The notes under the pieces were generated by a model. The model was not told the origin of the DNA and did not search any database. It saw only the letters and a list, made by a program, of their open reading frames with translations. Positions 7,790-55,517 of a stretch of 64,000 bases of DNA are shown here, piece by piece. Origin of the DNA: Oscillospiraceae bacterium (GTDB lineage: Bacteria > Bacillota > Clostridia > Oscillospirales > Ruminococcaceae). The stretch covers positions 8,665 to 72,664 of the forward strand of contig JBJFFR010000183.1 of NCBI GenBank assembly GCA_051891935.1, read 5' to 3'. The position numbers and the translations under genes are program-made. The first letter of the stretch is position 1, and each line of letters starts with the position of its first letter.

Positions 7790-8536
7790 ATGTCTAAAAT
7801 CATTGCTATAACATCCGGTAAAGGCGGTACCGGTAAATCCTCTATCTGTGCCGAGCTTGGCTTTGCTCTTGCTAAACAGGGTCACAGAACCCTTATCATA
7901 GAACTTGACTTCGGCCTTCGCTGCCTTGATATCATGCTTGGCGTAAAGGACGAGGTAAAATATGACCTCGGTTCGGTAATATCAGGCGAAGTCGATGTTT
8001 ATCAGGCCACCACTCCGGTCAAGATAGCTTCCAACCTCAGCCTTGTATGTGCGCCGGAGGATCCGTTCTCCAAGGTTGACGCTGCAACGATCAAGCGCAT
8101 CTGCGAGGAAATGAGAAAGTATTACGAATACATAATCGTTGATACCTCCGCAGGTACAAATGAAAGCGTTTTCGATGTTGTTGAGCAGTCCGATCTTATC
8201 CTCATCAACACAACTCCCGACCCGATCTGTGTTCGTGACGCTCGTGCAATGTCCGACGAGTTCTACAAGAGAGGCAACAAGAAGCAGCGCCTTATCATCA
8301 ACAAGATCGACCCCGATATATTCCAGTCGGATATCATTAAGGATCTTGACGATATCATTGATACTGTCGGCGTTCAGCTTATCGGCGTTATCCCGAACGA
8401 TGATGCTGTTGTTATTTCGACAGGAAAGGGCATTCCGCTCCCGTCGGGTTCAAACGCATTCAAGGCATTTGACGCTATTTCACGCCGTATAAAGGGCGAG
8501 GATGTTCCGCTCAGCTTCAAGATGCTGGTTCAGTAA
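7790..8536 (+). CDS. minD: MinD-like ParA-family septum-site ATPase
   Basis: Deviant Walker A SGKGGTGKSS. Start at ATG 7790 after RBS aggaaggtg; the ORF track begins at 7724. Lies after the mre cluster, as in other Firmicutes. Confidence 0.8.
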   Translation: MSKIIAITSGKGGTGKSSICAELGFALAKQGHRTLIIELDFGLRCLDIMLGVKDEVKYDLGSVISGEVDVYQATTPVKIASNLSLVCAPEDPFSKVDAATIKRICEEMRKYYEYIIVDTSAGTNESVFDVVEQSDLILINTTPDPICVRDARAMSDEFYKRGNKKQRLIINKIDPDIFQSDIIKDLDDIIDTVGVQLIGVIPNDDAVVISTGKGIPLPSGSNAFKAFDAISRRIKGEDVPLSFKMLVQ

Positions 8537-30565: not shown

Positions 30566-32557
30566 ATGTCAACAAGCAGATACTTCAACAGGATATGCGC
30601 TGTTGTTATGGTTTTATGTCTTGTCCTGACCGTGATGCTGTGTATTCCCGATAAGATCGGCATCCAAGCCGCTTCACGAACGCTTGGATATGAGGCAAAG
30701 CTGTTCGACATCTCTTATGTTCATTCCGTTGATATTGTAATGGACGATTGGGACAGCTTTATTGAAAGCTGCGAAAACGAGGAATATGCAAGCTGTTCCG
30801 CTGTCATCGACGGAGAAGCGTTCAAAAATATTGCTATTCGCGCAAAGGGAAACTCATCGTTAAGTCAGGTCGCACAATATGGCAATGACCGTTACAGCTT
30901 TAAGCTCGAATTCGACCATTACAATGACGGTGCAAGCTATTACGGACTTGACAAGCTTTGCCTTAACAACATCATTCAGGACAACACCTATATAAAAGAC
31001 TACCTTTGCTATACGATGATGAACTCTGCCGGAGTCGCCGCACCGCTTTGCAGCTTTGCATATATCACCGTAAACGGCGAGGACTGGGGACTTTACCTTG
31101 CGGTCGAAGCGATAGAGGACAGCTTTCTTGAACGCAATTACAGCGGAACAGGAAATCTCTACAAACCCGACAGCAGCTCCATGGGCGGCGGAAGAGGAAA
31201 CGGAAAGAATTTCAATCAGGACGATTTCGATTTCAGCAAAAACGAAAAATTTACTACGTCTTCAAACACGGAAAAAGGCGCATCGGATACCGAAAATGCT
31301 GACCGTCAGCCGCCGCAGAGAGGAAATTTAAACGGCTTCGGAGAAAATGGCGGAAAAGGCGGCTTCGGCGGAATGGGTTCGGACGATGTCAAGCTTGTTT
31401 ATACCGATGATGATTTTGACAGCTATGAGAACATCTTCGACAATGCAAAGACCGATATCACCAATGCCGACAAGACCCGTTTGATAAATTCGCTAAAGGT
31501 TTTAAGCTCGGACGATGCGGCTTCGGCAGTTGATGCTGATGCGGTGATAAAATACTTTGCCGTTCACAATTTCGTCTGCAACTTTGACAGCTACACAGGC
31601 TCAATGATACACAATTATTACCTTTACGAAAATGACGGTATTCTCTCAATGATACCGTGGGATTATAACCTTGCATTCGGCTCGTTTATGGGCGGCGGAG
31701 ATGGGACTTCAATGATAAACTTCCCGATAGATTCTCCCGTTTCGGGCGGCGATACCGATTCACGTCCGATGATCGCCTGGATATTCGCCGATGAAAAATA
31801 CACCGAGCTTTATCATGAAGCGCTTTCGGAATTCATTGCAGATTATTTTGAGAGCGGATATTTTGAAACGGAGATCGAACGGGTAAAAGCGCTTATCTCG
31901 CCTTATGTTGAAAAGGATCCGACAAAATTCTGTACCTATGACGAATTCACCGCAGGCATTTCGGCGCTTAAAGAATTCTGCGTTCTCCGTGCAAAAAGCG
32001 TGAGAGGGCAGCTTGACGGAACTGTTCCGTCCACATCCGAAGCGCAGTCTGCCGACAGCTCCGCACTTATTGACGGTTCTTCCGTGAACATGAGCGCAAT
32101 GGGTTCGATGTCAATGGGCGGCAGAAAAGAAAATATGCAGGGCGGTATGAACGGAAATATGCCGGGTTTTGATCTCGGAATTTCTTCCGAACAAAGCGGC
32201 TTTGGCGGCGAACCTCCCGAATTTCCGAATTTTGGCGGAGAAAGCCTCGAGCAGCCGAACAGCAATGCTCCTTCGAGCGAGCAGGCAGTATCGTCCGATG
32301 AAAGATCCACGGGCGGTGAGGATGCGCCAACTTCTCAAAGCGGTGATGAGGTATCGTCCGAACGGCCCGTGAACGGCAGCTTCGATAAAAACAGTATGTC
32401 CGAAGCTTCCCGTGACGAGAACAGCGGCATTGAACGTTCGCAGCAGTCCTCCGCCGACGGCTCTTCCGACGCAGAAAAGGTAGTTCTTCTTTGTATTTCG
32501 GCAGGCGCTCTGCTCGCTGCTCTGCTTCTTTTAAGAGTTTTCAAAGACAGGATATAA
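30566..32557 (+). CDS. cotH: CotH kinase-family protein with low-complexity tail and C-terminal TM anchor
   Basis: Signal/TM N-terminus. CotH core (IRAKGNSS...YSFKLEFD, NLYKPD, HNYYLYE...IPWDYNLAFG). Ser/Gly/Glu-rich tail ending in the hydrophobic segment VVLLCISAGALLAALLLL followed by the charged tail RVFKDRI. Confidence 0.8.
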   Translation: MSTSRYFNRICAVVMVLCLVLTVMLCIPDKIGIQAASRTLGYEAKLFDISYVHSVDIVMDDWDSFIESCENEEYASCSAVIDGEAFKNIAIRAKGNSSLSQVAQYGNDRYSFKLEFDHYNDGASYYGLDKLCLNNIIQDNTYIKDYLCYTMMNSAGVAAPLCSFAYITVNGEDWGLYLAVEAIEDSFLERNYSGTGNLYKPDSSSMGGGRGNGKNFNQDDFDFSKNEKFTTSSNTEKGASDTENADRQPPQRGNLNGFGENGGKGGFGGMGSDDVKLVYTDDDFDSYENIFDNAKTDITNADKTRLINSLKVLSSDDAASAVDADAVIKYFAVHNFVCNFDSYTGSMIHNYYLYENDGILSMIPWDYNLAFGSFMGGGDGTSMINFPIDSPVSGGDTDSRPMIAWIFADEKYTELYHEALSEFIADYFESGYFETEIERVKALISPYVEKDPTKFCTYDEFTAGISALKEFCVLRAKSVRGQLDGTVPSTSEAQSADSSALIDGSSVNMSAMGSMSMGGRKENMQGGMNGNMPGFDLGISSEQSGFGGEPPEFPNFGGESLEQPNSNAPSSEQAVSSDERSTGGEDAPTSQSGDEVSSERPVNGSFDKNSMSEASRDENSGIERSQQSSADGSSDAEKVVLLCISAGALLAALLLLRVFKDRI

Positions 32558-45932: not shown

Positions 45933-46061
45933 TATGTTTTCCTCCTGTCGAAAGTTTAGTGAATTTGTGTAAGAAATTCCGAACGACCCTTGAAATCGCC
46001 CCTCATTCCTTACATTTAATATTTATCTTGCTTGACATTTAATATTATACATCATATAATA

Positions 46062-47378
46062 TTAAATGTCAATAGTTTTTATAATATTTTTTATAATTTT
46101 TTTATTTTCATTGGAAAGTGTCGATTCTATGCGGAAAAGTGAACGAAATTCTTCGCCGAGATCGTCAAGTTCACACTCTGTTGAGGTAAAAAGTGTGCCA
46201 AGGCGTTCACCCTTATGAACATGATCGCCGACCTTCTTATCAAATATTATGCCTGCGGTCGGGTCGATAGAAGACTCCTTCGATTTTCTGCCTGCGCCGA
46301 GCTTGAGGGAGATCATTCCTGTTTCTTCGCAGGAGATCGAATTGACAAAGCCTTCCTTGTCCGAGAATATCTCAAGGCTCTGCGAAGCTTTTCCGAAGAG
46401 TGAGTAATCTTCGATCACATTCGGGTCGCCGCCCTGTGCGCAAATCATTCTGCGGAGTGCTTCAAGCGCTTTTCCCGAAGCAAGGGCGTCTTCCGCCATA
46501 GCAAAGCATTCTTCAAATGTGCCCTTGCCTGCAAGACGAAGCATTTCGGCAGCGAGCGTGAGTGAAACTTCTTTAAGGTCGTTCGGAGCATTTCCTTTAA
46601 GCGCTTCGATAGCTTCGATGACTTCGAGCGAATTTCCGACAGCCATTCCGAGCGGCTGATCCATATCCGTGAGGACGGCGGAGCATTTTCTTTTGGCGAG
46701 CGTTCCCACGTTTACCATTGCACGGGCAAGCTTTTCTGCGTCTTCTTCGGTCTTCATAAATGCGCCGTCACCGACCTTTACGTCGAGGACAATTCCATCT
46801 GCACCCGTTGCAAGCTTTTTGCTCATTATGGACGAGCATATAAGAGGAATGCTGTCAACGGTCGCTGTTGCGTTCCGAAGTGCGTACAGCTTTTTATCCG
46901 CAGGGACGAGCGAGCCGGTCTGACCTGCAACTGCGAAGCCTGCTTTTTTTACGCAGGAGATAAACTCATCGTAGGAGAGTGAGGTGTTGAAGCCCGGGAT
47001 AGATTCGAGCTTGTCTATCGTTCCGCCCGTATGTCCGAGGCCTCTGCCCGACATTTTGGGAACATAAATTCCGCAGCTTGCCGCTATCGGTGCGGTTATG
47101 AGGGTAGTTTTATCGCCGACTCCGCCTGTGCTGTGCTTATCGGCGCAGAATTTGTCAAGATTTGGTTTGATCATATCGCCCGAACGAGCCATTTCCATCG
47201 TGAGTTCGGTGGTTTCTTTGTCCGATAAAGAAGAAAAGCATACCGCCATAAGCAGTGCCGAAGCCTGATAATCGGGGATGCTGCCGGAAACATATCCGGC
47301 AACAAACCATTTTATCTCTTCGGCAGAAAGCTCTGCGCCATGCTTTTTCTTTTCTATCAATTCATACATCGTTATCAT
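46062..47378 (-). CDS. pdp: Pyrimidine-nucleoside (thymidine) phosphorylase
   Basis: HSTGGVGDKTTL and SGRGLGHTGGTIDKLESIPGF motifs. Length 438 aa. Confidence 0.9.
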   Translation of the reverse strand: MITMYELIEKKKHGAELSAEEIKWFVAGYVSGSIPDYQASALLMAVCFSSLSDKETTELTMEMARSGDMIKPNLDKFCADKHSTGGVGDKTTLITAPIAASCGIYVPKMSGRGLGHTGGTIDKLESIPGFNTSLSYDEFISCVKKAGFAVAGQTGSLVPADKKLYALRNATATVDSIPLICSSIMSKKLATGADGIVLDVKVGDGAFMKTEEDAEKLARAMVNVGTLAKRKCSAVLTDMDQPLGMAVGNSLEVIEAIEALKGNAPNDLKEVSLTLAAEMLRLAGKGTFEECFAMAEDALASGKALEALRRMICAQGGDPNVIEDYSLFGKASQSLEIFSDKEGFVNSISCEETGMISLKLGAGRKSKESSIDPTAGIIFDKKVGDHVHKGERLGTLFTSTECELDDLGEEFRSLFRIESTLSNENKKIIKNIIKTIDI

Positions 47379-48817
47379 AATACATCAATTCCCGTATAGT
47401 AATATTTCAAGATCTGGTCGTATGTATAGCCTGTCTTTGCAAGGTAATTTGCGCCGTTCTGGCTCATTCCGACGCCGTGCCCCCAGCCATAGGTCGTGAA
47501 GATGAAATATCCGTCCGAATAGGAAATGTCAAAGCTTGCGCTTTTAAGACTGTATGAAAGAACGTTTTCACGGAGTTTGCGTCCCGTGATGGTCATCTGT
47601 CCGTCGACATCAACGGTCGAAACGTAGTTGCCGTCAATATGTCCGGTGACGGTCAGCCAGTTTTCAGGGTTCTCGGAAAGGGTGATGCCGAGGTAGCGTT
47701 CAAGAGCGGAACGTATCTCGCTTTCGGAGAACTTTGTCTTTTTGCCATAGTTCGGGTCGCCCTCTGCGTCAAAAGGACAAGCAACGCTGACAAGGTAGGG
47801 GATGCTTCCGCCCCATACGTTCACGGAAGAAGCCGTATAGCCCGAGGAAGAAGCCATATAAACGGTCTGTGCGACCTTTCCGTTATAGTAGCAGCATTTT
47901 CCCCATACGGAGGAAACAAGGTCAACGATACGCTGCGGAGGATTGCTTTTTACAAGTACGGAAGGTGTAAGTCCGTTGACGTTGTGATACTTGACATAAG
48001 AATAAGCTGCGACAGCCTGTGCCTTTATAGCTTCATCGCTGAACGAAGAGGATATCTCGTTGTTGACTATCCTGCAGACAAGGTCGAATGCATCATCCGT
48101 ATGTACAGTGCCGCCGTATTTTGCGGTGAAGATCTCGCTGCCTGTTGAGGAAACAGGCGGAGCTTCCGTGACTACTTCGGTGGTGATAAAGGTCGGAGTC
48201 GTTTCGATCGGAGCGTCAATGGTCACGATAACATCGGCAACGGAAACTGACGGGATATCTGCAAGGCTCTCGGACGGAGCTGTCACGATTTCGTCATCAT
48301 CTTCCTCGGGAAGATCATCGTCAATGATAAGTGTATCGTCCTCGTCCTCATCCGGATAATCATCCTGCTGATCTTCCATAAGATCGTCTTCGGGGTTGTC
48401 CTCCGTGTCGATCTGGGAGAGGTTTTTCTCCTGCTTGTTATCATCGGCGAAAACCTCGTTGTGGGAAGCGGTGTTTTTGTTTTCGTTTGTTTCCTTATCA
48501 AGCTCTTCGGCATGGCCGGAGGGAAGGCTTACAGGGATCTCGCTGTCATCGTCATCGGTAAGATCCGGAGGAACTGTTGTAACTGCTTCACGCTTTGTAA
48601 CGATATCGGAATAATCCATTCCCGCATATTCCGATACTGCCGCGGAGGTAGCTTCTCCAATGTCTTCTCCCGTATCGGCGTCTGTTTCGGTCGAATAGTA
48701 GAAGTCCATTGAGATCGGTTCTTCATCGACATCTTCCACAAGGCAGAATGCAAAGGTATAAAACCCTGCGACCAGCAGCAGAGAAGCGATGCCGCTCAAA
48801 ACTGTACTTTTTTTCAT
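47375..48817 (-). CDS. SpoIID/LytB-domain protein with long acidic N-terminal linker
   Basis: Signal/TM, an Asp/Glu-rich region of about 200 aa, then a SpoIID core (AIKAQAVAAYSY..., GWGHGVGMSQNGANYLA). A 4-nt overlap with pdp. Confidence 0.8.
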   Translation of the reverse strand: MKKSTVLSGIASLLLVAGFYTFAFCLVEDVDEEPISMDFYYSTETDADTGEDIGEATSAAVSEYAGMDYSDIVTKREAVTTVPPDLTDDDDSEIPVSLPSGHAEELDKETNENKNTASHNEVFADDNKQEKNLSQIDTEDNPEDDLMEDQQDDYPDEDEDDTLIIDDDLPEEDDDEIVTAPSESLADIPSVSVADVIVTIDAPIETTPTFITTEVVTEAPPVSSTGSEIFTAKYGGTVHTDDAFDLVCRIVNNEISSSFSDEAIKAQAVAAYSYVKYHNVNGLTPSVLVKSNPPQRIVDLVSSVWGKCCYYNGKVAQTVYMASSSGYTASSVNVWGGSIPYLVSVACPFDAEGDPNYGKKTKFSESEIRSALERYLGITLSENPENWLTVTGHIDGNYVSTVDVDGQMTITGRKLRENVLSYSLKSASFDISYSDGYFIFTTYGWGHGVGMSQNGANYLAKTGYTYDQILKYYYTGIDVL

Positions 48818-48840
48818 AATGATTTCCTTTCAGTTCTTAC

Positions 48841-49062
48841 GGGAACCTCTAAAAACCTCCTTCACGGCAAATCCCCTATGAATTTTGTCATCTGCTGCGA
48901 TATCAAAGTAAACGCTGATTAGATTGAATAAATGAAGCGTTTACTTACCTTGAAATACATCAAGTATTCACTGCGGTTTGATGCCTTGCAGCTGACAAAA
49001 TTCATAACGAGGCTTTGCGAGCAATACGAAGTATTGCTTTGTCTCGGTTTTTAGAGAACCCC
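48841..49062 (+). repeat. Structured palindromic repeat, copy 3
   Basis: GGGAACCTCTAAAAACC...GGTTTTTAGAGAACCCC. Fills the gap between the sortase stop (49063) and the spoIID-like start (48817). Confidence 0.85.
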
Positions 49063-50109
49063 TTATTCTATATATGAACCGCCGTTGAATTTATAGTAAA
49101 TAGCAGGCCACTTGGGGTTCTGATTCACATAAAATCCTGTTGTATCTATATTTTCGGTGGTTTCACCGGGGCGCAGACGTCTTGCAATAACTACATGACG
49201 CGCTTCGTCCCATTCGTATGCGCAGGTAGAAAGGGTAAGATATTTATCGTTTTCATCAAAATCAATTCCTGTGATGAACTGGCTGCGTGTGGTTATTTCC
49301 TTCTTGTAATTCTCAAAGGTATAAGCGCCGCTGTCACGGAAATTGATAAAATTGATGTAATCGAACACGTTTCCGTCATCATGCTCGGGGAGAGTATTGA
49401 CAACAAAGGAAGAAATTATAACATAGGTATAGTTCTCATAGTAATTGTCGAAGTAGATGAACGGGTTTTGTAACCAGTATTTGAGATCCCATTTATAATA
49501 GTCAAGGTTTCCGAACATTGAGCCGTCACGGTTGTTATGACCATAGAGGATGATGTTACTGCTCTGCTTGTCGGAATAATCGTTTATGACGTTGGAAGGA
49601 TCTGCAAAGACGGTTCCGACCGAGCGCACCTGATCGTAGAAATTGTGATTTAGGTAATAGCTTTTGTCACGCTGAACGATCGGCTCGCCGAGGACATCGG
49701 GAATAGAGATATATCCTACATAATCGGGATTGATCGCAAGCATTTCTTCTGCGGCTTCAGAGCGGACGAGCGGAGGACGTTCCTCTTCGGGGATATCATC
49801 GGAATTCTCGGGAGGAAGCGTAACAGTTTCGTTTCCAATGCCTTGGGAGTTCCCGGCGGCGTTGTTGTAGATGACATTGAGCTTATCGTTGTTCTGCTTT
49901 GCTTCAAACTGGTGGTAGAAATAAATTATAAGCACAATTATGCAGACAACAAGAACCAGAAGTGCAAAAAGAGAGAATACTTTGCTTGCTATTTCCTGAA
50001 CCGAGTCGCCTCTGTGGGGAATAAATGCTTCAGAAAAGCTTTTTTTCTTCTTCTTTTTTTCTTGTTCATTAGAGTGTCGGGAATGATAAACTTCATCGGC
50101 AAGTGCCAT
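49063..50109 (-). CDS. Class B sortase paralog 4
   Basis: N-terminal TM. SrtB-like core with His (ILYGHNNRDGSMFGNL), Cys (LTLSTCAYE) and Arg (VVIARRL). Confidence 0.8.
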   Translation of the reverse strand: MALADEVYHSRHSNEQEKKKKKKSFSEAFIPHRGDSVQEIASKVFSLFALLVLVVCIIVLIIYFYHQFEAKQNNDKLNVIYNNAAGNSQGIGNETVTLPPENSDDIPEEERPPLVRSEAAEEMLAINPDYVGYISIPDVLGEPIVQRDKSYYLNHNFYDQVRSVGTVFADPSNVINDYSDKQSSNIILYGHNNRDGSMFGNLDYYKWDLKYWLQNPFIYFDNYYENYTYVIISSFVVNTLPEHDDGNVFDYINFINFRDSGAYTFENYKKEITTRSQFITGIDFDENDKYLTLSTCAYEWDEARHVVIARRLRPGETTENIDTTGFYVNQNPKWPAIYYKFNGGSYIE

Positions 50110-52697
50110 TATGTATAAACTCCTTTAACTGATCCTGCAGTAACGGTCGTGGTTTCCTCTTCTTCCGTTTCGGGGACGTTTGTGACAGTCGTTTCCTCCG
50201 TATCGGAGGTTTCTGCAGTAGTTTCTTTAGTTGTTGTTTTTTTCTTTTTCGTTGTTGTGGTTTCTTCCTCGGAAGTATCTTTAGTCGTTGTTTTTTTCTT
50301 TTTGGTCGTTGTGGTTTCTTCCTCGGAAGTTTCTTTAGTTGTTGTTTTTTTCTTTTTTGTCGTTGTAGTTTCTTCTTCGGAAGTTTCTTCTACAGTAGTT
50401 TCTGTTGTATTCTTCGATTTTTTCTTTGTTGTTTCCTCGGTGGTTTCCTCTGTAGTTTCGGCGGTCGTTTTCTTCTTTTTGGAAGTGGTTTCTTCGTTAT
50501 CGCCGTCTTCATCGGAAGCATCGGGAGGAACGGTCGTTTCGTCAGAATTATCGGAACTTTCCGAATCAGCATTTTCCTCATCGGAAGTATCGGTCTGTTT
50601 TTTCTTCTTCTTTTTCTTCTTGGTGGTGGTTTCGTCGTCCTCGTCGGAGTTCTCCTCATCGGGGACTGTTGTTTCTTCTTCCGTTGTTGTTATTCCGGAC
50701 ATTATAGCTGTCCAGTCAACTCCTCTTGCATAAGGGTTGAACGATGCAGAGGTGAAGTCATAGTCGGAAACGCTCTCTCCGTCGCGAAGCTTTCGTGCAA
50801 AAACTACGAAGCGTGAGTTGGAGAACTCGTTCGAGCAGGTCGAGAGGAGAAGAAGCTTATCGCCGTATTCGGCTTTGACGGGGGAAATTATCTGATTGCG
50901 CGACTGGATTTCGCCCATATACCAATCAAAGGTGGCTTCGTCATTAAGCACTTCGATATAATCTTGATAATGGAAAACTACGCCGTTGGAATCCTGCTTT
51001 TCAAGTGCGTTCGTTACGAAATAGGCATAGATAAGGTATGTGCCCGTTTCATACTCGGTTCGGAGCGTAATGGTCGGGTTTGCAGCATAAAAGTCAAGAT
51101 CCTGCTTATAGTTTCTGAGGTTGCCGAACATGGTGCCGTCTTCCTGGTTATGACCGTAGAGGACAATATTCGGGGAAACATGATCCTCACTGATGGTACA
51201 GCGGTAATCCATAAAGATCGCACCGCCCTTGTTCTGCTCGTCATAGTATGTATGAGTAAGATAGTAGGTATTTGTCGTGTCCTCGGGATCATGGACAACG
51301 GGCTGGTAGATATCGCAGCCCTCAAGCTCGATAAATCCGACTACCTTATCGCTTATACCTTTATAATAGGACATGATGTCGATGTTATGCTGCTGCTCCT
51401 CCTCTTCGGTCGGTGCAATAGTTATAACGTTTCCATCGCTGTCGATAGTTGTCTTTGCTGTTGTGGTAACAACTTCCTTTATTGCTTCAAGATCCTTTAC
51501 GGCTCTTTTCGACTGGATAAGCGTACTTGCAAGCATAACGCCTGCGCCGATAAAGATCACGACCGCAATGATGAACACAATCTTTCGTATCATCTCAAAA
51601 ACGGAGTCGCCTTTCCACGGGAAAATCTCTTTAAGGATGTTTTTCTTTTCCTTTTTTTCGGCGTCCTCTTTGGCTTCGTTCTCGGTCAGAACGATAGGTG
51701 CGGGTTCAAACGGAGGAATGTCGTTTGTATTTTCTTCTGTCGTTTCTTCGGAAGCATTGTTTTCCTCATCGGAAGGGATCTCGCTGATTTCGTCTTTCTC
51801 CTCGGACGCTTCGGGTTCATCGTCATCGAAGATCTCTTCAACGTCATCGGAGCTTTCGGTGTTTTCGCCGTATTCTTCGGGATCGCTCTCGTCCTCTTCG
51901 ATCTCTTCACTTTCAATATCGGAGATCGCATCGTTAACGGCTTCTTCAATGTCTGCGGAGCCATCGGGCAGGATGTCGTTCCAGTCGGGGATATCGGCGG
52001 AAAGAACTTCGACCGTGTCTTCCTGCTTATCTTCGGTTTCGGCGATATCGTCAAGTCCGTTTGTGAACACACTTGAAAAAGTGCTTTCAGCGGTTTCCTG
52101 TTCGCTTGTGCCGCTGAAGCTTTCCGCAGGGATAACTCCGTCAAGCACTGCTGACGGCTTCACGATCTCGGGTTCAGAGGGTTCGTTTATTTCCTCTTCG
52201 GATATATCATCAATAATATTACTGTCTGTAATATTATTTTCGGGGTTTTCATTGGTATCGGGGGATGCTTCGTCCTGTTTGATCTCATCGGTTTCGGTTG
52301 AAGCACCCTCGGGAGCTGTTTCCGTATATTCTTCTGCTGTCGATACGGTTTCAGGCTCGTCTGACTTGTCCTGTGTTTCGGCATTGTCGGAGGCTTCGGT
52401 TTTTTCGGTAACGGATGTTTCCTCATCGGCGGTGCTGCTTTCGTCCGCTTCGGTCTGCTGTTCGGCAGGTTCCAAAGCTTCGGCAGGTTCCGTGGGTTCG
52501 GAAATTTCCTCGGGGGGAGCAGGCTTTGCATGGCGAGGTACATACTCCCCGTCTGCGGAAAGCTCCTCGGAGAATTCCGCGTCAAATTCTTCTGTTATAT
52601 CATCCTGTGCGTCCTGCACTTCGGGCGGTTCGGCTTTTTTCTTGTCGAATTCCGCAATTATATCATCGACTGTGAAGCCGAATTTGTTATCTGGCAT
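50109..52697 (-). CDS. Class B sortase paralog 3 with about 360-aa acidic N-terminal and about 190-aa Thr/Glu/Lys-repeat C-terminal extensions
   Basis: Central TM plus a sortase core (IVLYGHNQEDGTMFGNL, LLLSTCSNEFSNSRFVVFARKL). Stop/start overlap (TAATG) with paralog 4. Confidence 0.75.
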   Translation of the reverse strand: MPDNKFGFTVDDIIAEFDKKKAEPPEVQDAQDDITEEFDAEFSEELSADGEYVPRHAKPAPPEEISEPTEPAEALEPAEQQTEADESSTADEETSVTEKTEASDNAETQDKSDEPETVSTAEEYTETAPEGASTETDEIKQDEASPDTNENPENNITDSNIIDDISEEEINEPSEPEIVKPSAVLDGVIPAESFSGTSEQETAESTFSSVFTNGLDDIAETEDKQEDTVEVLSADIPDWNDILPDGSADIEEAVNDAISDIESEEIEEDESDPEEYGENTESSDDVEEIFDDDEPEASEEKDEISEIPSDEENNASEETTEENTNDIPPFEPAPIVLTENEAKEDAEKKEKKNILKEIFPWKGDSVFEMIRKIVFIIAVVIFIGAGVMLASTLIQSKRAVKDLEAIKEVVTTTAKTTIDSDGNVITIAPTEEEEQQHNIDIMSYYKGISDKVVGFIELEGCDIYQPVVHDPEDTTNTYYLTHTYYDEQNKGGAIFMDYRCTISEDHVSPNIVLYGHNQEDGTMFGNLRNYKQDLDFYAANPTITLRTEYETGTYLIYAYFVTNALEKQDSNGVVFHYQDYIEVLNDEATFDWYMGEIQSRNQIISPVKAEYGDKLLLLSTCSNEFSNSRFVVFARKLRDGESVSDYDFTSASFNPYARGVDWTAIMSGITTTEEETTVPDEENSDEDDETTTKKKKKKKKQTDTSDEENADSESSDNSDETTVPPDASDEDGDNEETTSKKKKTTAETTEETTEETTKKKSKNTTETTVEETSEEETTTTKKKKTTTKETSEEETTTTKKKKTTTKDTSEEETTTTKKKKTTTKETTAETSDTEETTVTNVPETEEEETTTVTAGSVKGVYT
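50226..50387 (-). repeat. 3 x 54-bp in-frame tandem repeat (ETSEEETTTTKKKKTTTK)
   Basis: Three consecutive 18-codon units in the C-terminal tail of the 862-aa sortase. Further poly-Lys and poly-Thr runs are nearby. Confidence 0.8.
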
Positions 52698-52718
52698 GGG
52701 GAACTGTCCTTTTCGGGT

Positions 52719-53702
52719 TTATTGATTATAGATAAAATCATAATCGGGTTCTTTTGCTTCGTAGTTGATCGATGCGAGTGAAGTATCGACCTCGGGGGAT
52801 TCACCGTCACGAACACGTCTGCCGATCACAACGAATCGGGACGGTTCAAACTCATTCGAGCAGGTGGAAAGTGTGAGGAACTTATCGTTCTTATCGAAGT
52901 CAACGCCTGTGTTTATTGCGGTATGCTTGAGAACATTCTCCTTAAACATATCAAAGGTGCGCTTTTTGCCGAATTTGACATAGTTATGATAGTCAAAGAT
53001 TATGCCGTCACGGGAATGTCTTGGTTCGACTTCGATAACAAAAGCGGCTATTATCTTATATGTGTATTCCTCATAGAGGTTGGAGAACTCAAAGGTCGGG
53101 TGCTCAAGATAGAAGTCAAATCCCTTTATGCTGCCCGATGCAGGCTTTACCTTGTAGTAACTGAGTGTGCCGAACATTGTGCCGTCCTTCTGATTGTGGC
53201 CATAGAGGATGATGTTCGGAGTTTGTTTGTCGTTATAATCGTTGACGATGCAGCGGAAGTCGGCGAATACCGTACCCGGCTGCGATTTATTTCCGTCAAA
53301 GTCACGGTCAAGGTAATAGTCGTTGTTATCTGTCTGGACAACGACATTGTCGATGTATGTACCGCCGACCTTTATCCAGCCTGCGGTGTCGGGGTTGCGT
53401 TCAACGAACTGCGCCATACTGTCGAGCATTACAAGCGGAGGCGGAGCGGTCGTTACGGTCGTTTCCTCGGTGGTAACGGGCGTTGTTGCCGTGGTTTCCT
53501 GGGTTATAACGTTCGTATGTGCGTTCGCAAGCTCTTCGTTGAGCTTTTTATTGCGCTGTCCGGAAATGATGCTTGCAATGAGGATCACGATGACAACTAT
53601 GATGACTGCCAATGCGGCGAGAGTAACGATCTTGGACGCCTTCACCTTTGGCGAATCATCCTTCTGCGGTATGAATTTATCGAAAAAGCTGTTATTTGAC
53701 AT
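52719..53702 (-). CDS. Class B sortase paralog 2
   Basis: Start MSNNSFFDKFIP (ATG 53702). IILYGHNQKDGTMFGTL, LTLSTCSNEFEPSRFVVIGRRV. Confidence 0.8.
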   Translation of the reverse strand: MSNNSFFDKFIPQKDDSPKVKASKIVTLAALAVIIVVIVILIASIISGQRNKKLNEELANAHTNVITQETTATTPVTTEETTVTTAPPPLVMLDSMAQFVERNPDTAGWIKVGGTYIDNVVVQTDNNDYYLDRDFDGNKSQPGTVFADFRCIVNDYNDKQTPNIILYGHNQKDGTMFGTLSYYKVKPASGSIKGFDFYLEHPTFEFSNLYEEYTYKIIAAFVIEVEPRHSRDGIIFDYHNYVKFGKKRTFDMFKENVLKHTAINTGVDFDKNDKFLTLSTCSNEFEPSRFVVIGRRVRDGESPEVDTSLASINYEAKEPDYDFIYNQ

Positions 53703-53745
53703 TTGAGTTTTTCCTTTTGTGTAAAATTTTGTTCTGTGCGGAGCT

Positions 53746-54708
53746 CTATTTGTTATAGATAACGTTCCAGTCGGGTTCCTTTGCGCTCTTGTTGGTATAA
53801 GCCTGTGAAGTATCGACGGTCGGATCCTCGCCCTTGCGCGTTTTTCTTGCAATAACTACAAATCGGGACGGTTCAAACTCATTCGAGCAGGTCGAGAGTG
53901 TGAGGAACGAGTCGCCGTATTCAACGTCAACGCCCGTTACTATCTGTGAACGAAGCTCGACATTTTCGATGAAGCTGTTATAGCGTTCCTTTTTGTCGAA
54001 GTTGATGTAGTTGTGGTAATCGAAGATAACTCCGTCGGCAGTTTGCCAGGTTTCAACGGGAGTTACAAAGCAGGCGATGATCTTATAAACATCGGTGCTG
54101 TAATTCGAGCTGAAGGTTATTGTCGGGTGCGATTTATAGAAATCGAGGTCGTGCTTATACTTGGCGAGGTCGCCGAACATGGTCTTGTCCTTCTGGTTAT
54201 GACCGTAGAGGATAAGGTTGTCCGAGCGTTCACGGGCATTGAGCGTTGCGCGGTAGTCGAGGAAGATCGTTCCTGCCTTGTTCTTACTGCCGTCAAAGGC
54301 ACGTTTGAGGTAGTAGGAATTTCCGTCGCTGCCCTTTCGCTGAACGACGGGGAGGGCGATGTTCGTATCGTCTATCTGCACCCAGCCGACTGTATCCTCG
54401 TTTATTTCAAGGAGCTGTTTTGCACTCGGCAGAAGCTCTCCGCCGTTGTCGCCGGGGGTGATGTGCGAGATGATAAGATCTTTGAGCGAGCCGTTGAGGC
54501 GCATTGTGCTCAATGACTGGCGAAGCTCGTTGCCGAGTATCACGATGCAGCCGATAAGGATGACAAGGCAAAGCTGGGTAAAGATCTTGCTTACGACTTC
54601 TTTTGCACTGTCACCCTTCTGGATGAGCAGCCAGTGACCTCTGCGTTCCTTGCGTTTCCTTTTCTGCGCTTTCTTATAGGCTTTTTGAGCCTCACGGGAT
54701 AATGCCAT
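53746..54708 (-). CDS. Class B sortase paralog 1
   Basis: LILYGHNQKDKTMFGDL, LTLSTCSNEFEPSRFVVIARK. VGWVQIDDTNIALPVV resembles the SrtB N-terminal strand. Confidence 0.8.
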   Translation of the reverse strand: MALSREAQKAYKKAQKRKRKERRGHWLLIQKGDSAKEVVSKIFTQLCLVILIGCIVILGNELRQSLSTMRLNGSLKDLIISHITPGDNGGELLPSAKQLLEINEDTVGWVQIDDTNIALPVVQRKGSDGNSYYLKRAFDGSKNKAGTIFLDYRATLNARERSDNLILYGHNQKDKTMFGDLAKYKHDLDFYKSHPTITFSSNYSTDVYKIIACFVTPVETWQTADGVIFDYHNYINFDKKERYNSFIENVELRSQIVTGVDVEYGDSFLTLSTCSNEFEPSRFVVIARKTRKGEDPTVDTSQAYTNKSAKEPDWNVIYNK

Positions 54709-54901
54709 TTATTTATCAGTTCCTAATCTGTGTATATTTATTAGTAGTATAATTATACAGCAAAACAGTCGGAAAGTCAAGAAAATGCGCACGTTTTGTA
54801 GCATTTGCCAAATAAACCTGCTTATAAATTACATATAGGAAAGAGATTGGGGCATACAAAGGCATTTTTTAGAATATTAGGGCAAAATTATACTCTCTGT
54901 A

Positions 54902-55061: not shown

Positions 55062-55517
55062 ATGCGCTGTCCGTTCTGCGGTTTTGAAGATACAAAGGTT
55101 ATTGACTCCCGTCCTGCCGACGGTCAGAAGCGCCGCCGCAGAGAATGCACGAGCTGCGGAAGAAGGTTCACGACCTATGAATCGGTCGAAGTTCCCGTTC
55201 TTCTTGTTACGAAAAAGGACAACACGGCGGAGCTTTTTAACCGGAACAAGCTCATTGCCGGAATTTCAACGGCGGTGAAGAAGCGTCCTGTTTCCGCAGG
55301 CGACATAAACCGCATCGTCGAGGAGATCGAAAGCTACTATGCGAACAAGATGGTGACGCAGGTATCGAGTACGGAGCTTGGCGACAGAGTTCTTGCGGCG
55401 CTTCGTGAGATAGACGAGGTGGCTTACGTTCGTTTTGCGTCCGTTTACAAGGATTTTGACGATGTTGACAGCTTTATTGACATAATCTCCGAGCTGCGTG
55501 ATGGGGAGAAAAAATAA
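55062..55517 (+). CDS. nrdR: Transcriptional repressor NrdR
   Basis: MRCPFCG...CTSCGRRFTTYE zinc ribbon plus an ATP-cone. Length 151 aa. Confidence 0.95.
   Translation: MRCPFCGFEDTKVIDSRPADGQKRRRRECTSCGRRFTTYESVEVPVLLVTKKDNTAELFNRNKLIAGISTAVKKRPVSAGDINRIVEEIESYYANKMVTQVSSTELGDRVLAALREIDEVAYVRFASVYKDFDDVDSFIDIISELRDGEKK

Follow-up and report, generated by a model that had tools for sequence, protein, structure and literature searches.

The window analysed here is a 64-kb stretch of a metagenome-assembled genome (MAG) of an Oscillospiraceae bacterium (G000, 2.87 Mb, 85% complete); window coordinates are used unless a contig is named. On its minus strand, the open reading frame (ORF) listing contains four adjacent ORFs, S1–S4, each coding for a class B sortase core preceded by an N-terminal membrane anchor. 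The genome sets comprised one genus (G000–G018; 19 genomes, 18 besides G000) and 22 other genera (G019–G040). The array consists of the following parts (aa, amino acids; TM, transmembrane):

S1, 53746..54708, minus strand: 320 aa; K/R-rich cytoplasmic N-terminus, LIQKGDS juxtamembrane motif and one TM helix.
S1 sortase domain, within 53746..54708, minus strand: H170, C274 and R282, then a conserved 30-aa C-terminal extension.
S2, 52719..53702, minus strand: 327 aa from ATG; IPQKDDS motif, TM 25-48, sortase domain with H169, C281 and R289.
S3, 50109..52697, minus strand: 862 aa; FPWKGDS motif, TM 373-394, sortase domain with H516, C621 and R629.
S4, 49063..50109, minus strand: 348 aa; IPHRGDS motif, TM 44-65, sortase domain with H191, C296 and R304.

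The intergenic gaps from S1 to S4 are 43, 21 and -1 bp, the start of S4 overlapping the stop of S3 (ATAATG), and a purine-rich ribosome-binding site is located before every gene. For S2, the ATG at 53702 is the most likely start, in preference to the TTG at 53852 (the TTG version overlaps S1), because the former has an AAGGAAA ribosome-binding site and the relatives' length is 328 aa. The sortase domain of S2 has an 8-residue insertion after the YYK segment. S3 is extended on both sides, with a predicted cytoplasmic region of ~355 aa before the TM helix, acidic and of low complexity (net charge -106), and a T/E/K-rich extracellular tail of ~210 aa after the sortase domain; its orthologues vary from 639 to 894 aa in the relatives, yet the sortase core is conserved. 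The juxtamembrane motif IP.KGDS, given as shared in a preliminary description of the window, is real, but looser than that pattern, as the four variants listed above show.

The same description had reported four consecutive same-strand sortase genes, and all four were recovered with both Pfam and NCBIfam. S1–S4 score above the gathering threshold of Pfam Sortase (PF04203; 32.7–45 bits vs. 26.6), and TIGR03064 (class B sortase) was the best NCBIfam family for each of them (E 2e-32 to 2e-48), S1 also exceeding its equivalog cut-off of 153.75 bits with 164.5 bits. The same hidden Markov model (HMM) matched none of 14 control genomes, so the sortase matches are not due to chance. In a four-way alignment, where S2–S4 are 37–49% identical to S1, the catalytic His (LYGHN), Cys (LSTC) and Arg (RFVV/RHVV) are invariant, in agreement with the intact triads described earlier; the proposed Cys pattern L[ST]LSTC is approximate, since S3 reads LLLSTC, but the Cys itself is kept in all. 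The array Arg aligns with the catalytic Arg of Bacillus anthracis SrtB. Sequence matches in the PDB were to SrtB of B. anthracis, Staphylococcus aureus, Listeria monocytogenes, Clostridioides difficile and Clostridium perfringens (E 1e-29 to 1e-14).

Structure prediction covered S1 of the four proteins. The AlphaFold model (mean predicted local distance difference test score, pLDDT, 84) shows a helix on the cytoplasmic side, followed by a long TM helix and the sortase domain. The 19 best Foldseek matches of this model in the PDB are all class B sortase chains (TM-score, TMt, 0.77–0.90), led by 2oqw (TMt 0.90, root-mean-square deviation 2.2); the S. aureus SrtB-substrate complex 4lfd gave a TMt of 0.87, and class A and C sortases 0.56 or less. 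The SrtB-type features, namely the beta-barrel, the extra N-terminal helices and the helix in the beta6/beta7 loop, are all found in the model.

PF04203 matches were confined to the array in both G000 and the 99%-complete congener G013, with four proteins each; S1–S4 are the sole detectable sortases of the G000 MAG and of G013. The preliminary description had allowed that the genes might not encode sortases or might be pseudogenised. Judged from the HMM matches, the match of the S1 model to SrtB crystal structures (TM-score 0.86–0.90) and the low ratios of nonsynonymous to synonymous substitution (dN/dS) that indicate purifying selection, S1–S4 are genuine SrtB-type sortases and not pseudogenes.

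The expansion recurs across the genus. Sortase matches were obtained in 17 of the 18 other genomes, 16 of them with four copies and one with five. In the phylogenetic tree, which had been proposed as a check, every array position forms its own orthologue clade (Shimodaira–Hasegawa approximate likelihood ratio test, SH-aLRT, 99–100), and all genus copies cluster apart from the sortases of other genera (SH-aLRT 86–98). Since there is one clade per position and the genus copies stand together, S1–S4 most likely arose by tandem duplications in the stem of the genus, followed by divergence. The deeper nodes between the genus clade and the sortases of other genera are open forks with long branches, so no outgroup copy is named as ancestral. 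Pairwise dN/dS over eight genomes was 0.07–0.135 per sortase paralogue, with dS partly saturated, and no internal stops occur in the array copies examined. Among the fixed paralogue-specific differences are residues 276 and 278, which follow the catalytic Cys closely in the beta7-beta8 loop, and 217-218, near beta6. In B. anthracis SrtB, the beta7-beta8 loop affects activity (PMC11987632). These sites are compatible with split specificities of the paralogues, without proving them.

The array is flanked by the following elements:

Promoter-like site of sigma-70 type, 54752..54780, minus strand: TTGACT-17-TATAAT, 11/12, upstream of S1; a consensus match only.
nrdR, 55062..55517, plus strand: divergently transcribed; the left border of the block, conserved in the genus.
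Hairpin-like dispersed repeat of 245 bp, 48818..49062, no strand assigned: between S4 and the SpoIID-like gene.
SpoIID/LytB-domain protein gene, 47375..48817, minus strand: 480 aa; N-terminal TM helix, acidic linker and divergent SpoIID-like domain.
Pyrimidine-nucleoside phosphorylase gene (pdp), 46062..47378, minus strand: 4-bp overlap between its start and the SpoIID-like stop; closes the conserved block.
Terminator-like hairpin, 45981..46001, minus strand: after pdp; a consensus match only.

S1–S4, the SpoIID-like gene and pdp seem to form a single operon driven by a vegetative-type promoter. The order nrdR<>S1-S2-S3-S4-SpoIID-like-pdp was identical in all 12 genus arrays that were fetched. 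The 245-bp repeat has dozens of copies on the contigs of the MAG and is absent at the equivalent site in the 12 relatives (gap of ~20 bp), which points to a recent insertion within the operon.

The SpoIID-like neighbour requires a closer look, because the preliminary description had drawn a link to sporulation from it. The protein reached 164.1 bits against TIGR02870, the SpoIID equivalog, below the cut-off of 234.75, and passed the broader SpoIID/LytB model TIGR02669 (130.7 vs. 83.3). With PF08486, the sortase-linked copy scored 34 bits and a second copy on contig C22 scored 73 bits; identity between them is 29%, and the former carries two deletions. The C22 copy looks like the canonical engulfment SpoIID, and the array neighbour, on these scores, is a divergent SpoIID paralogue and not the engulfment gene. 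When this neighbour is aligned with C. difficile SpoIID, the residue opposite the catalytic Glu region is conserved (NNEISSSF vs. AGEMSSEF), and the pairwise dN/dS of its gene over eight genomes was 0.10 (dS partly saturated). SpoIVA was found as two pieces (C115:11017-11460 and C120:10150-10701), which is probably a matter of fragmented assembly and not of a broken gene. On contig C116, a 470-aa frame from ~32140 gave a third weak SpoIID-family match (32158-32400) and has apparent repeated peptidoglycan-binding segments; from its sequence, the product seems to resemble the SleC-type cortex-lytic germination enzymes. With a canonical SpoIID, SpoIVA fragments and a SleC-like protein, the G000 organism looks like a spore former.

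Both the SpoIID-type domain of the neighbour and this spore-former look would suit a sporulation device: array and SpoIID-like enzyme would be produced while the cell sporulates, and they would attach proteins to the wall of the forespore or cortex. Comparable sporulation anchoring is carried out by the class D SrtC of B. anthracis. We nevertheless consider this explanation unlikely. The adjoining gene is the divergent paralogue and the canonical one lies on C22, a near-consensus sigma-70-type promoter precedes S1, and the operon ends with pdp, so that the sporulation link of the preliminary description is weak. With the promoter, the terminator-like hairpin and the recurrence of the divergent gene type beside or fused to sortases in other genera, a dedicated sporulation role is less likely than a general wall function. 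Moreover, the array contains the only sortases, and the candidate cargo consists of ordinary secreted proteins with signal peptides.

This cargo was sought with a motif-agnostic scan of all genome ORFs for a C-terminal hydrophobic helix followed by a basic tail, as well as with regular expressions and a genus-specific signal HMM. In the window, the regular expressions and the signal HMM detected no sorting signal, as had been described before; their matches in this genome lie on contigs C50 and C149 only. The earlier suggestion that the substrates are encoded elsewhere, to be followed up by a proteome scan for C-terminal signals, proved fruitful, as a genus-conserved family of proteins with (NP)xTGN signals was found on these two contigs. 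C50 (4324-8883) carries five tandem candidate-substrate genes and a mini-ORF, and C149 carries one gene for a 549-aa protein. In the full-length candidates, a signal peptide is followed by a variable domain, then by a linker that is acidic or rich in Thr, and finally by a signal tail. The first type of tail reads ...NPGTGN-[SA]PIALAVIPVALAAAAVVA-KK.. and the second ...T[ST]xTGN-xxAAxIxxVMAVAGxAAxAA-KKRK. NP is retained in only 2 of ~7 G000 candidates, and the invariant core is T-G-N alone. Against the LPXTG-anchor model, the G000 tails scored 16–18 bits (threshold 15.9).

The candidate-substrate cluster was present in all 11 further genus genomes whose region was fetched, with one small acidic NPxTGN protein and three to five TxTGN proteins of 210–290 aa. 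In those fetched stretches that extend to the cluster end, the last element is a mini-ORF of ~42–46 aa (M..LTES..TGN, a 30-aa helix and KKKK), which in G000 is the following:

Mini-ORF, C50:4324-4509, minus strand: M(T)VLTESALTGN, helix and KKKK; 44-aa product; relatives in L055–L062 and L068.

The mini-ORF was conserved at the cluster end in 10/10 genomes checked, with a dN/dS of ~0.18 over 40 codons; its product may be a sortase substrate of peptide size, or it may have a regulatory role. G022 has a comparable mini-ORF (LEISPSTGD, helix, RKKK) after its sortase/SpoIID-like pair (L046, ~7790-7915).

The signal HMM built from the genus tails found 4–9 copies in 17 of 18 genus genomes, two copies in the sister genus G019 and none in the 21 other genera. 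The signal type and the four-sortase expansion consequently share their phyletic range. In related genera, a single srtB stands beside a substrate ending in SPKTGD (G024) or VPKTGD (G035), and NPETG[AD] proteins of G023 and G040 pass the cut-off of the NCBIfam model NF033846 (Rumino_NPXTG). Within the genus, one protein of G003 passes it. Class B sortases recognise NPQTN, NPKTG and (S/P)PxTG (PMC4155245, PMC11987632). For SrtB of B. anthracis, whose motif is NPKTG, the P2' residue is required (PMC11987632), which fits the invariant P2' Asn in TGN.

Several other proteins were set aside. The LPXTG-anchor HMM match on contig C77 is a false positive: it falls on a large multi-pass membrane protein, in which the model picked up an internal TM helix. 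Proteins with a C-terminal TM helix and a basic tail on C153, C163 and C141 and at 30566-32557 of the window have no TGN or PxTG core and were not counted. Cellulosome or amylosome anchoring was discarded, as the genome gave no dockerin or cohesin matches.

The number of sortases, together with a cluster of 4–6 small paralogous substrates with graded signal types, also recalls the assembly of fibres or pili, whereby some of the sortases would polymerise the 210–290-aa TGN proteins of the C50-type cluster and another would anchor the fibre to the wall. Class B sortases are known to assemble the type II pili of Streptococcus pyogenes and Streptococcus pneumoniae, and the pilus-type class B sortases 3psq and 4y4q were among the structural matches of S1. 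However, the sortases are not linked to the substrate cluster. The AlphaFold model of the candidate substrate C50:7437-8201 is a beta-sandwich of modest confidence (mean pLDDT 63, core 80–93), for which neither a pilin nor any other PDB fold gave a significant match, and no pilin-motif or isopeptide domains were detected. Fibre assembly is quite unlikely in our view.

To place the array among its relatives, the sortase loci of the other genera were compared. A divergent SpoIID-like gene is located directly downstream of a sortase gene in G019, G021, G022 and G038, and in G023 (L045) the two are fused in one frame of 956 aa (Pfam Sortase at 366-537, SpoIID from 720). The long sortases of other genera combine CinA domains, a TM helix and SrtB in a single ORF:

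L046 (G022:C17) and L053 (G027:C1): the full MoCF, KH and CinA set fused to a class B sortase.
L052 (G036:C7) and L049 (G038:C99): a CinA domain fused to a class B sortase.
L051 (G023:C1): only the KH part (CinA_KH) fused to a class B sortase.

Some CinA/sortase fusions bear Big_2 or Big_9 domains or low-complexity tails. In addition, cinA is found directly upstream of the sortase gene in G019, G021 and G032. Among the proteins read, the juxtamembrane motif of the other genera is FPWKGD in L046 and L047, IPKKGDS in L048 and the looser FPQKSDS in L051. The CinA domain (PF02464) was found in 0/19 genomes of the genus (G000–G018) vs. 21/22 other genera. By gene content, then, the array is the CinA-less form, with four sortases, of a sortase/SpoIID-like (CinA) association that exists in related genera. 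No description of the sortase/SpoIID-like association, the CinA/sortase fusions or an Oscillospiraceae class B array was found in the literature searched, where the only co-mention of SpoIID and a sortase concerns a discounted LPXTG candidate of Clostridium acetobutylicum. The recurring link between sortase and SpoIID-like gene, together with the one fusion, suggests that anchoring and wall opening are physically coupled; such coupling by a sortase and a SpoIID-like domain was likewise not described in the literature searched. The adjacency in four other genera and the single-polypeptide fusion of G023 would also suit a wall-acting module, where the sortases and the SpoIID-like enzyme work on stem peptides or on each other (as a scaffold or in cross-linking) and the TGN proteins are merely membrane-anchored, but we regard this as very doubtful, given that all four copies retain the full triad under purifying selection and that a role as plain membrane anchors would hardly account for tripartite signals in which TGN is invariant.

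We favour, with a probability of about 0.65, the explanation that S1–S4 are the working sortases of this organism, expanded, probably specialised for (NP)xTGN signals of proteins whose genes lie in other parts of the genome, and functionally tied to the SpoIID-like wall-cutting enzyme. The proposed mechanism is as follows. S1–S4 would be active, membrane-anchored class B sortases with the N-terminus in the cytoplasm, one TM helix and the catalytic domain outside. Since no other sortases were detected in the organism, all cell-wall sorting would fall to them. They would cleave C-terminal NPxTGN or TxTGN signals, with T-G-N as the core, presumably between T and G, and the cleaved protein would be transferred to peptidoglycan precursors. 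The cargo, encoded on other contigs, would comprise the small secreted beta-sandwich proteins of the conserved cluster, a protein of ~550 aa and possibly the 44-aa mini-protein. With less confidence, we suggest that the four paralogues split the signal classes among themselves, and that the co-encoded SpoIID-like enzyme, as a cutter of glycan strands, may remodel the wall locally for anchoring.

A number of observations weigh against this explanation. S2, S3 and S4 are under the TIGR03064 equivalog cut-off of 153.75 (132, 112.3 and 121.4 bits; E 2e-38 to 2e-32). Most of the signals are without the Pro of canonical sortase motifs (TSTGTGN), and we know of no precedent for a Pro-less sortase signal. 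The G000 tails are below the NF033846 cut-off, though near the threshold (16–19 vs. 23.5 bits), and the candidate substrates and the sortases are unlinked in the genome. G015 has the array and no signal match, and G007 has the signals and no array; both are MAGs of 90–92% completeness, and the mismatch may be an assembly loss. Finally, the assignment of one sortase to each signal class is only a plausible mapping.

A further-reaching version is possible, although we hold it as tentative and rather doubtful. According to it, the sortase and SpoIID-like pair (with CinA elsewhere) is an undescribed wall-insertion machine in which local cutting of glycan strands is coupled to the covalent anchoring of proteins; in the present genus, CinA would have been lost, four specialised sortases would run all sorting, and a Pro-less T-G-N signal would have co-evolved with them, including a 44-aa mini-protein that exports only a 10-residue peptide.

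Comparison with known systems shows how far the array departs from them. The class B sortases of B. anthracis (1rz2, 2oqw), S. aureus (1ng5, 4lfd) and C. difficile (5gyj, 4ux7) share the fold (TMt 0.79–0.90, 27–33% identity), the His-Cys-Arg triad and the membrane anchor at the N-terminus; the candidate signals of the array genome would likewise be NPxTG-like, with P2' as an important residue. Unlike them, the array is made up of four tandem paralogues, which are the sole sortases, are not beside their candidate substrates and form an operon with a SpoIID-like enzyme. It also differs in the cytoplasmic extension with the FPxKGDS-type juxtamembrane motif, the conserved 30-aa C-terminal extension, the ~570 aa of low-complexity sequence in S3 and the lack of Asn-Pro in most candidate signals of the array genome. 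The NF033846 proteins of Ruminococcus-type Clostridia have the C-terminal signal, hydrophobic helix and basic tail in common with the G000 candidates, whereas the G000 tails score below the cut-off of that model, have TGN as the core and mostly lack NP. The SpoIID of Bacillus subtilis, B. anthracis and C. difficile (4rwr, 5i1t, 5txu), an engulfment lytic transglycosylase, has the same domain as the array neighbour (E 1e-25 to 1e-31), but in the latter a long acidic linker is present, and its gene is found together with sortase genes or fused to them, not in a sporulation locus. With the sortase/SpoIID-like (CinA) module of other gut Clostridia, the array shares the juxtamembrane motif and the position of a sortase directly upstream of a divergent SpoIID-like gene. 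That module has one to three sortases and CinA, in contrast to the four sortases of the array, all of them catalytically intact and without CinA.

What is known of sortases is based on a handful of pathogens whose SrtB is single, narrow in purpose and located beside its substrate. In uncultured gut Clostridia of an abundant group, class B-type sortases appear to be the only ones in use, quadruplicated and fixed in an operon with a peptidoglycan-cutting enzyme. Standard searches for LPxTG or NPxTG would overlook the candidate T-G-N signal, which often has no Asn-Pro. Should the paralogues really divide the labour, the four enzymes and three signal classes would be a natural system for studying the evolution of sortase specificity and a possible source of orthogonal ligation enzymes.

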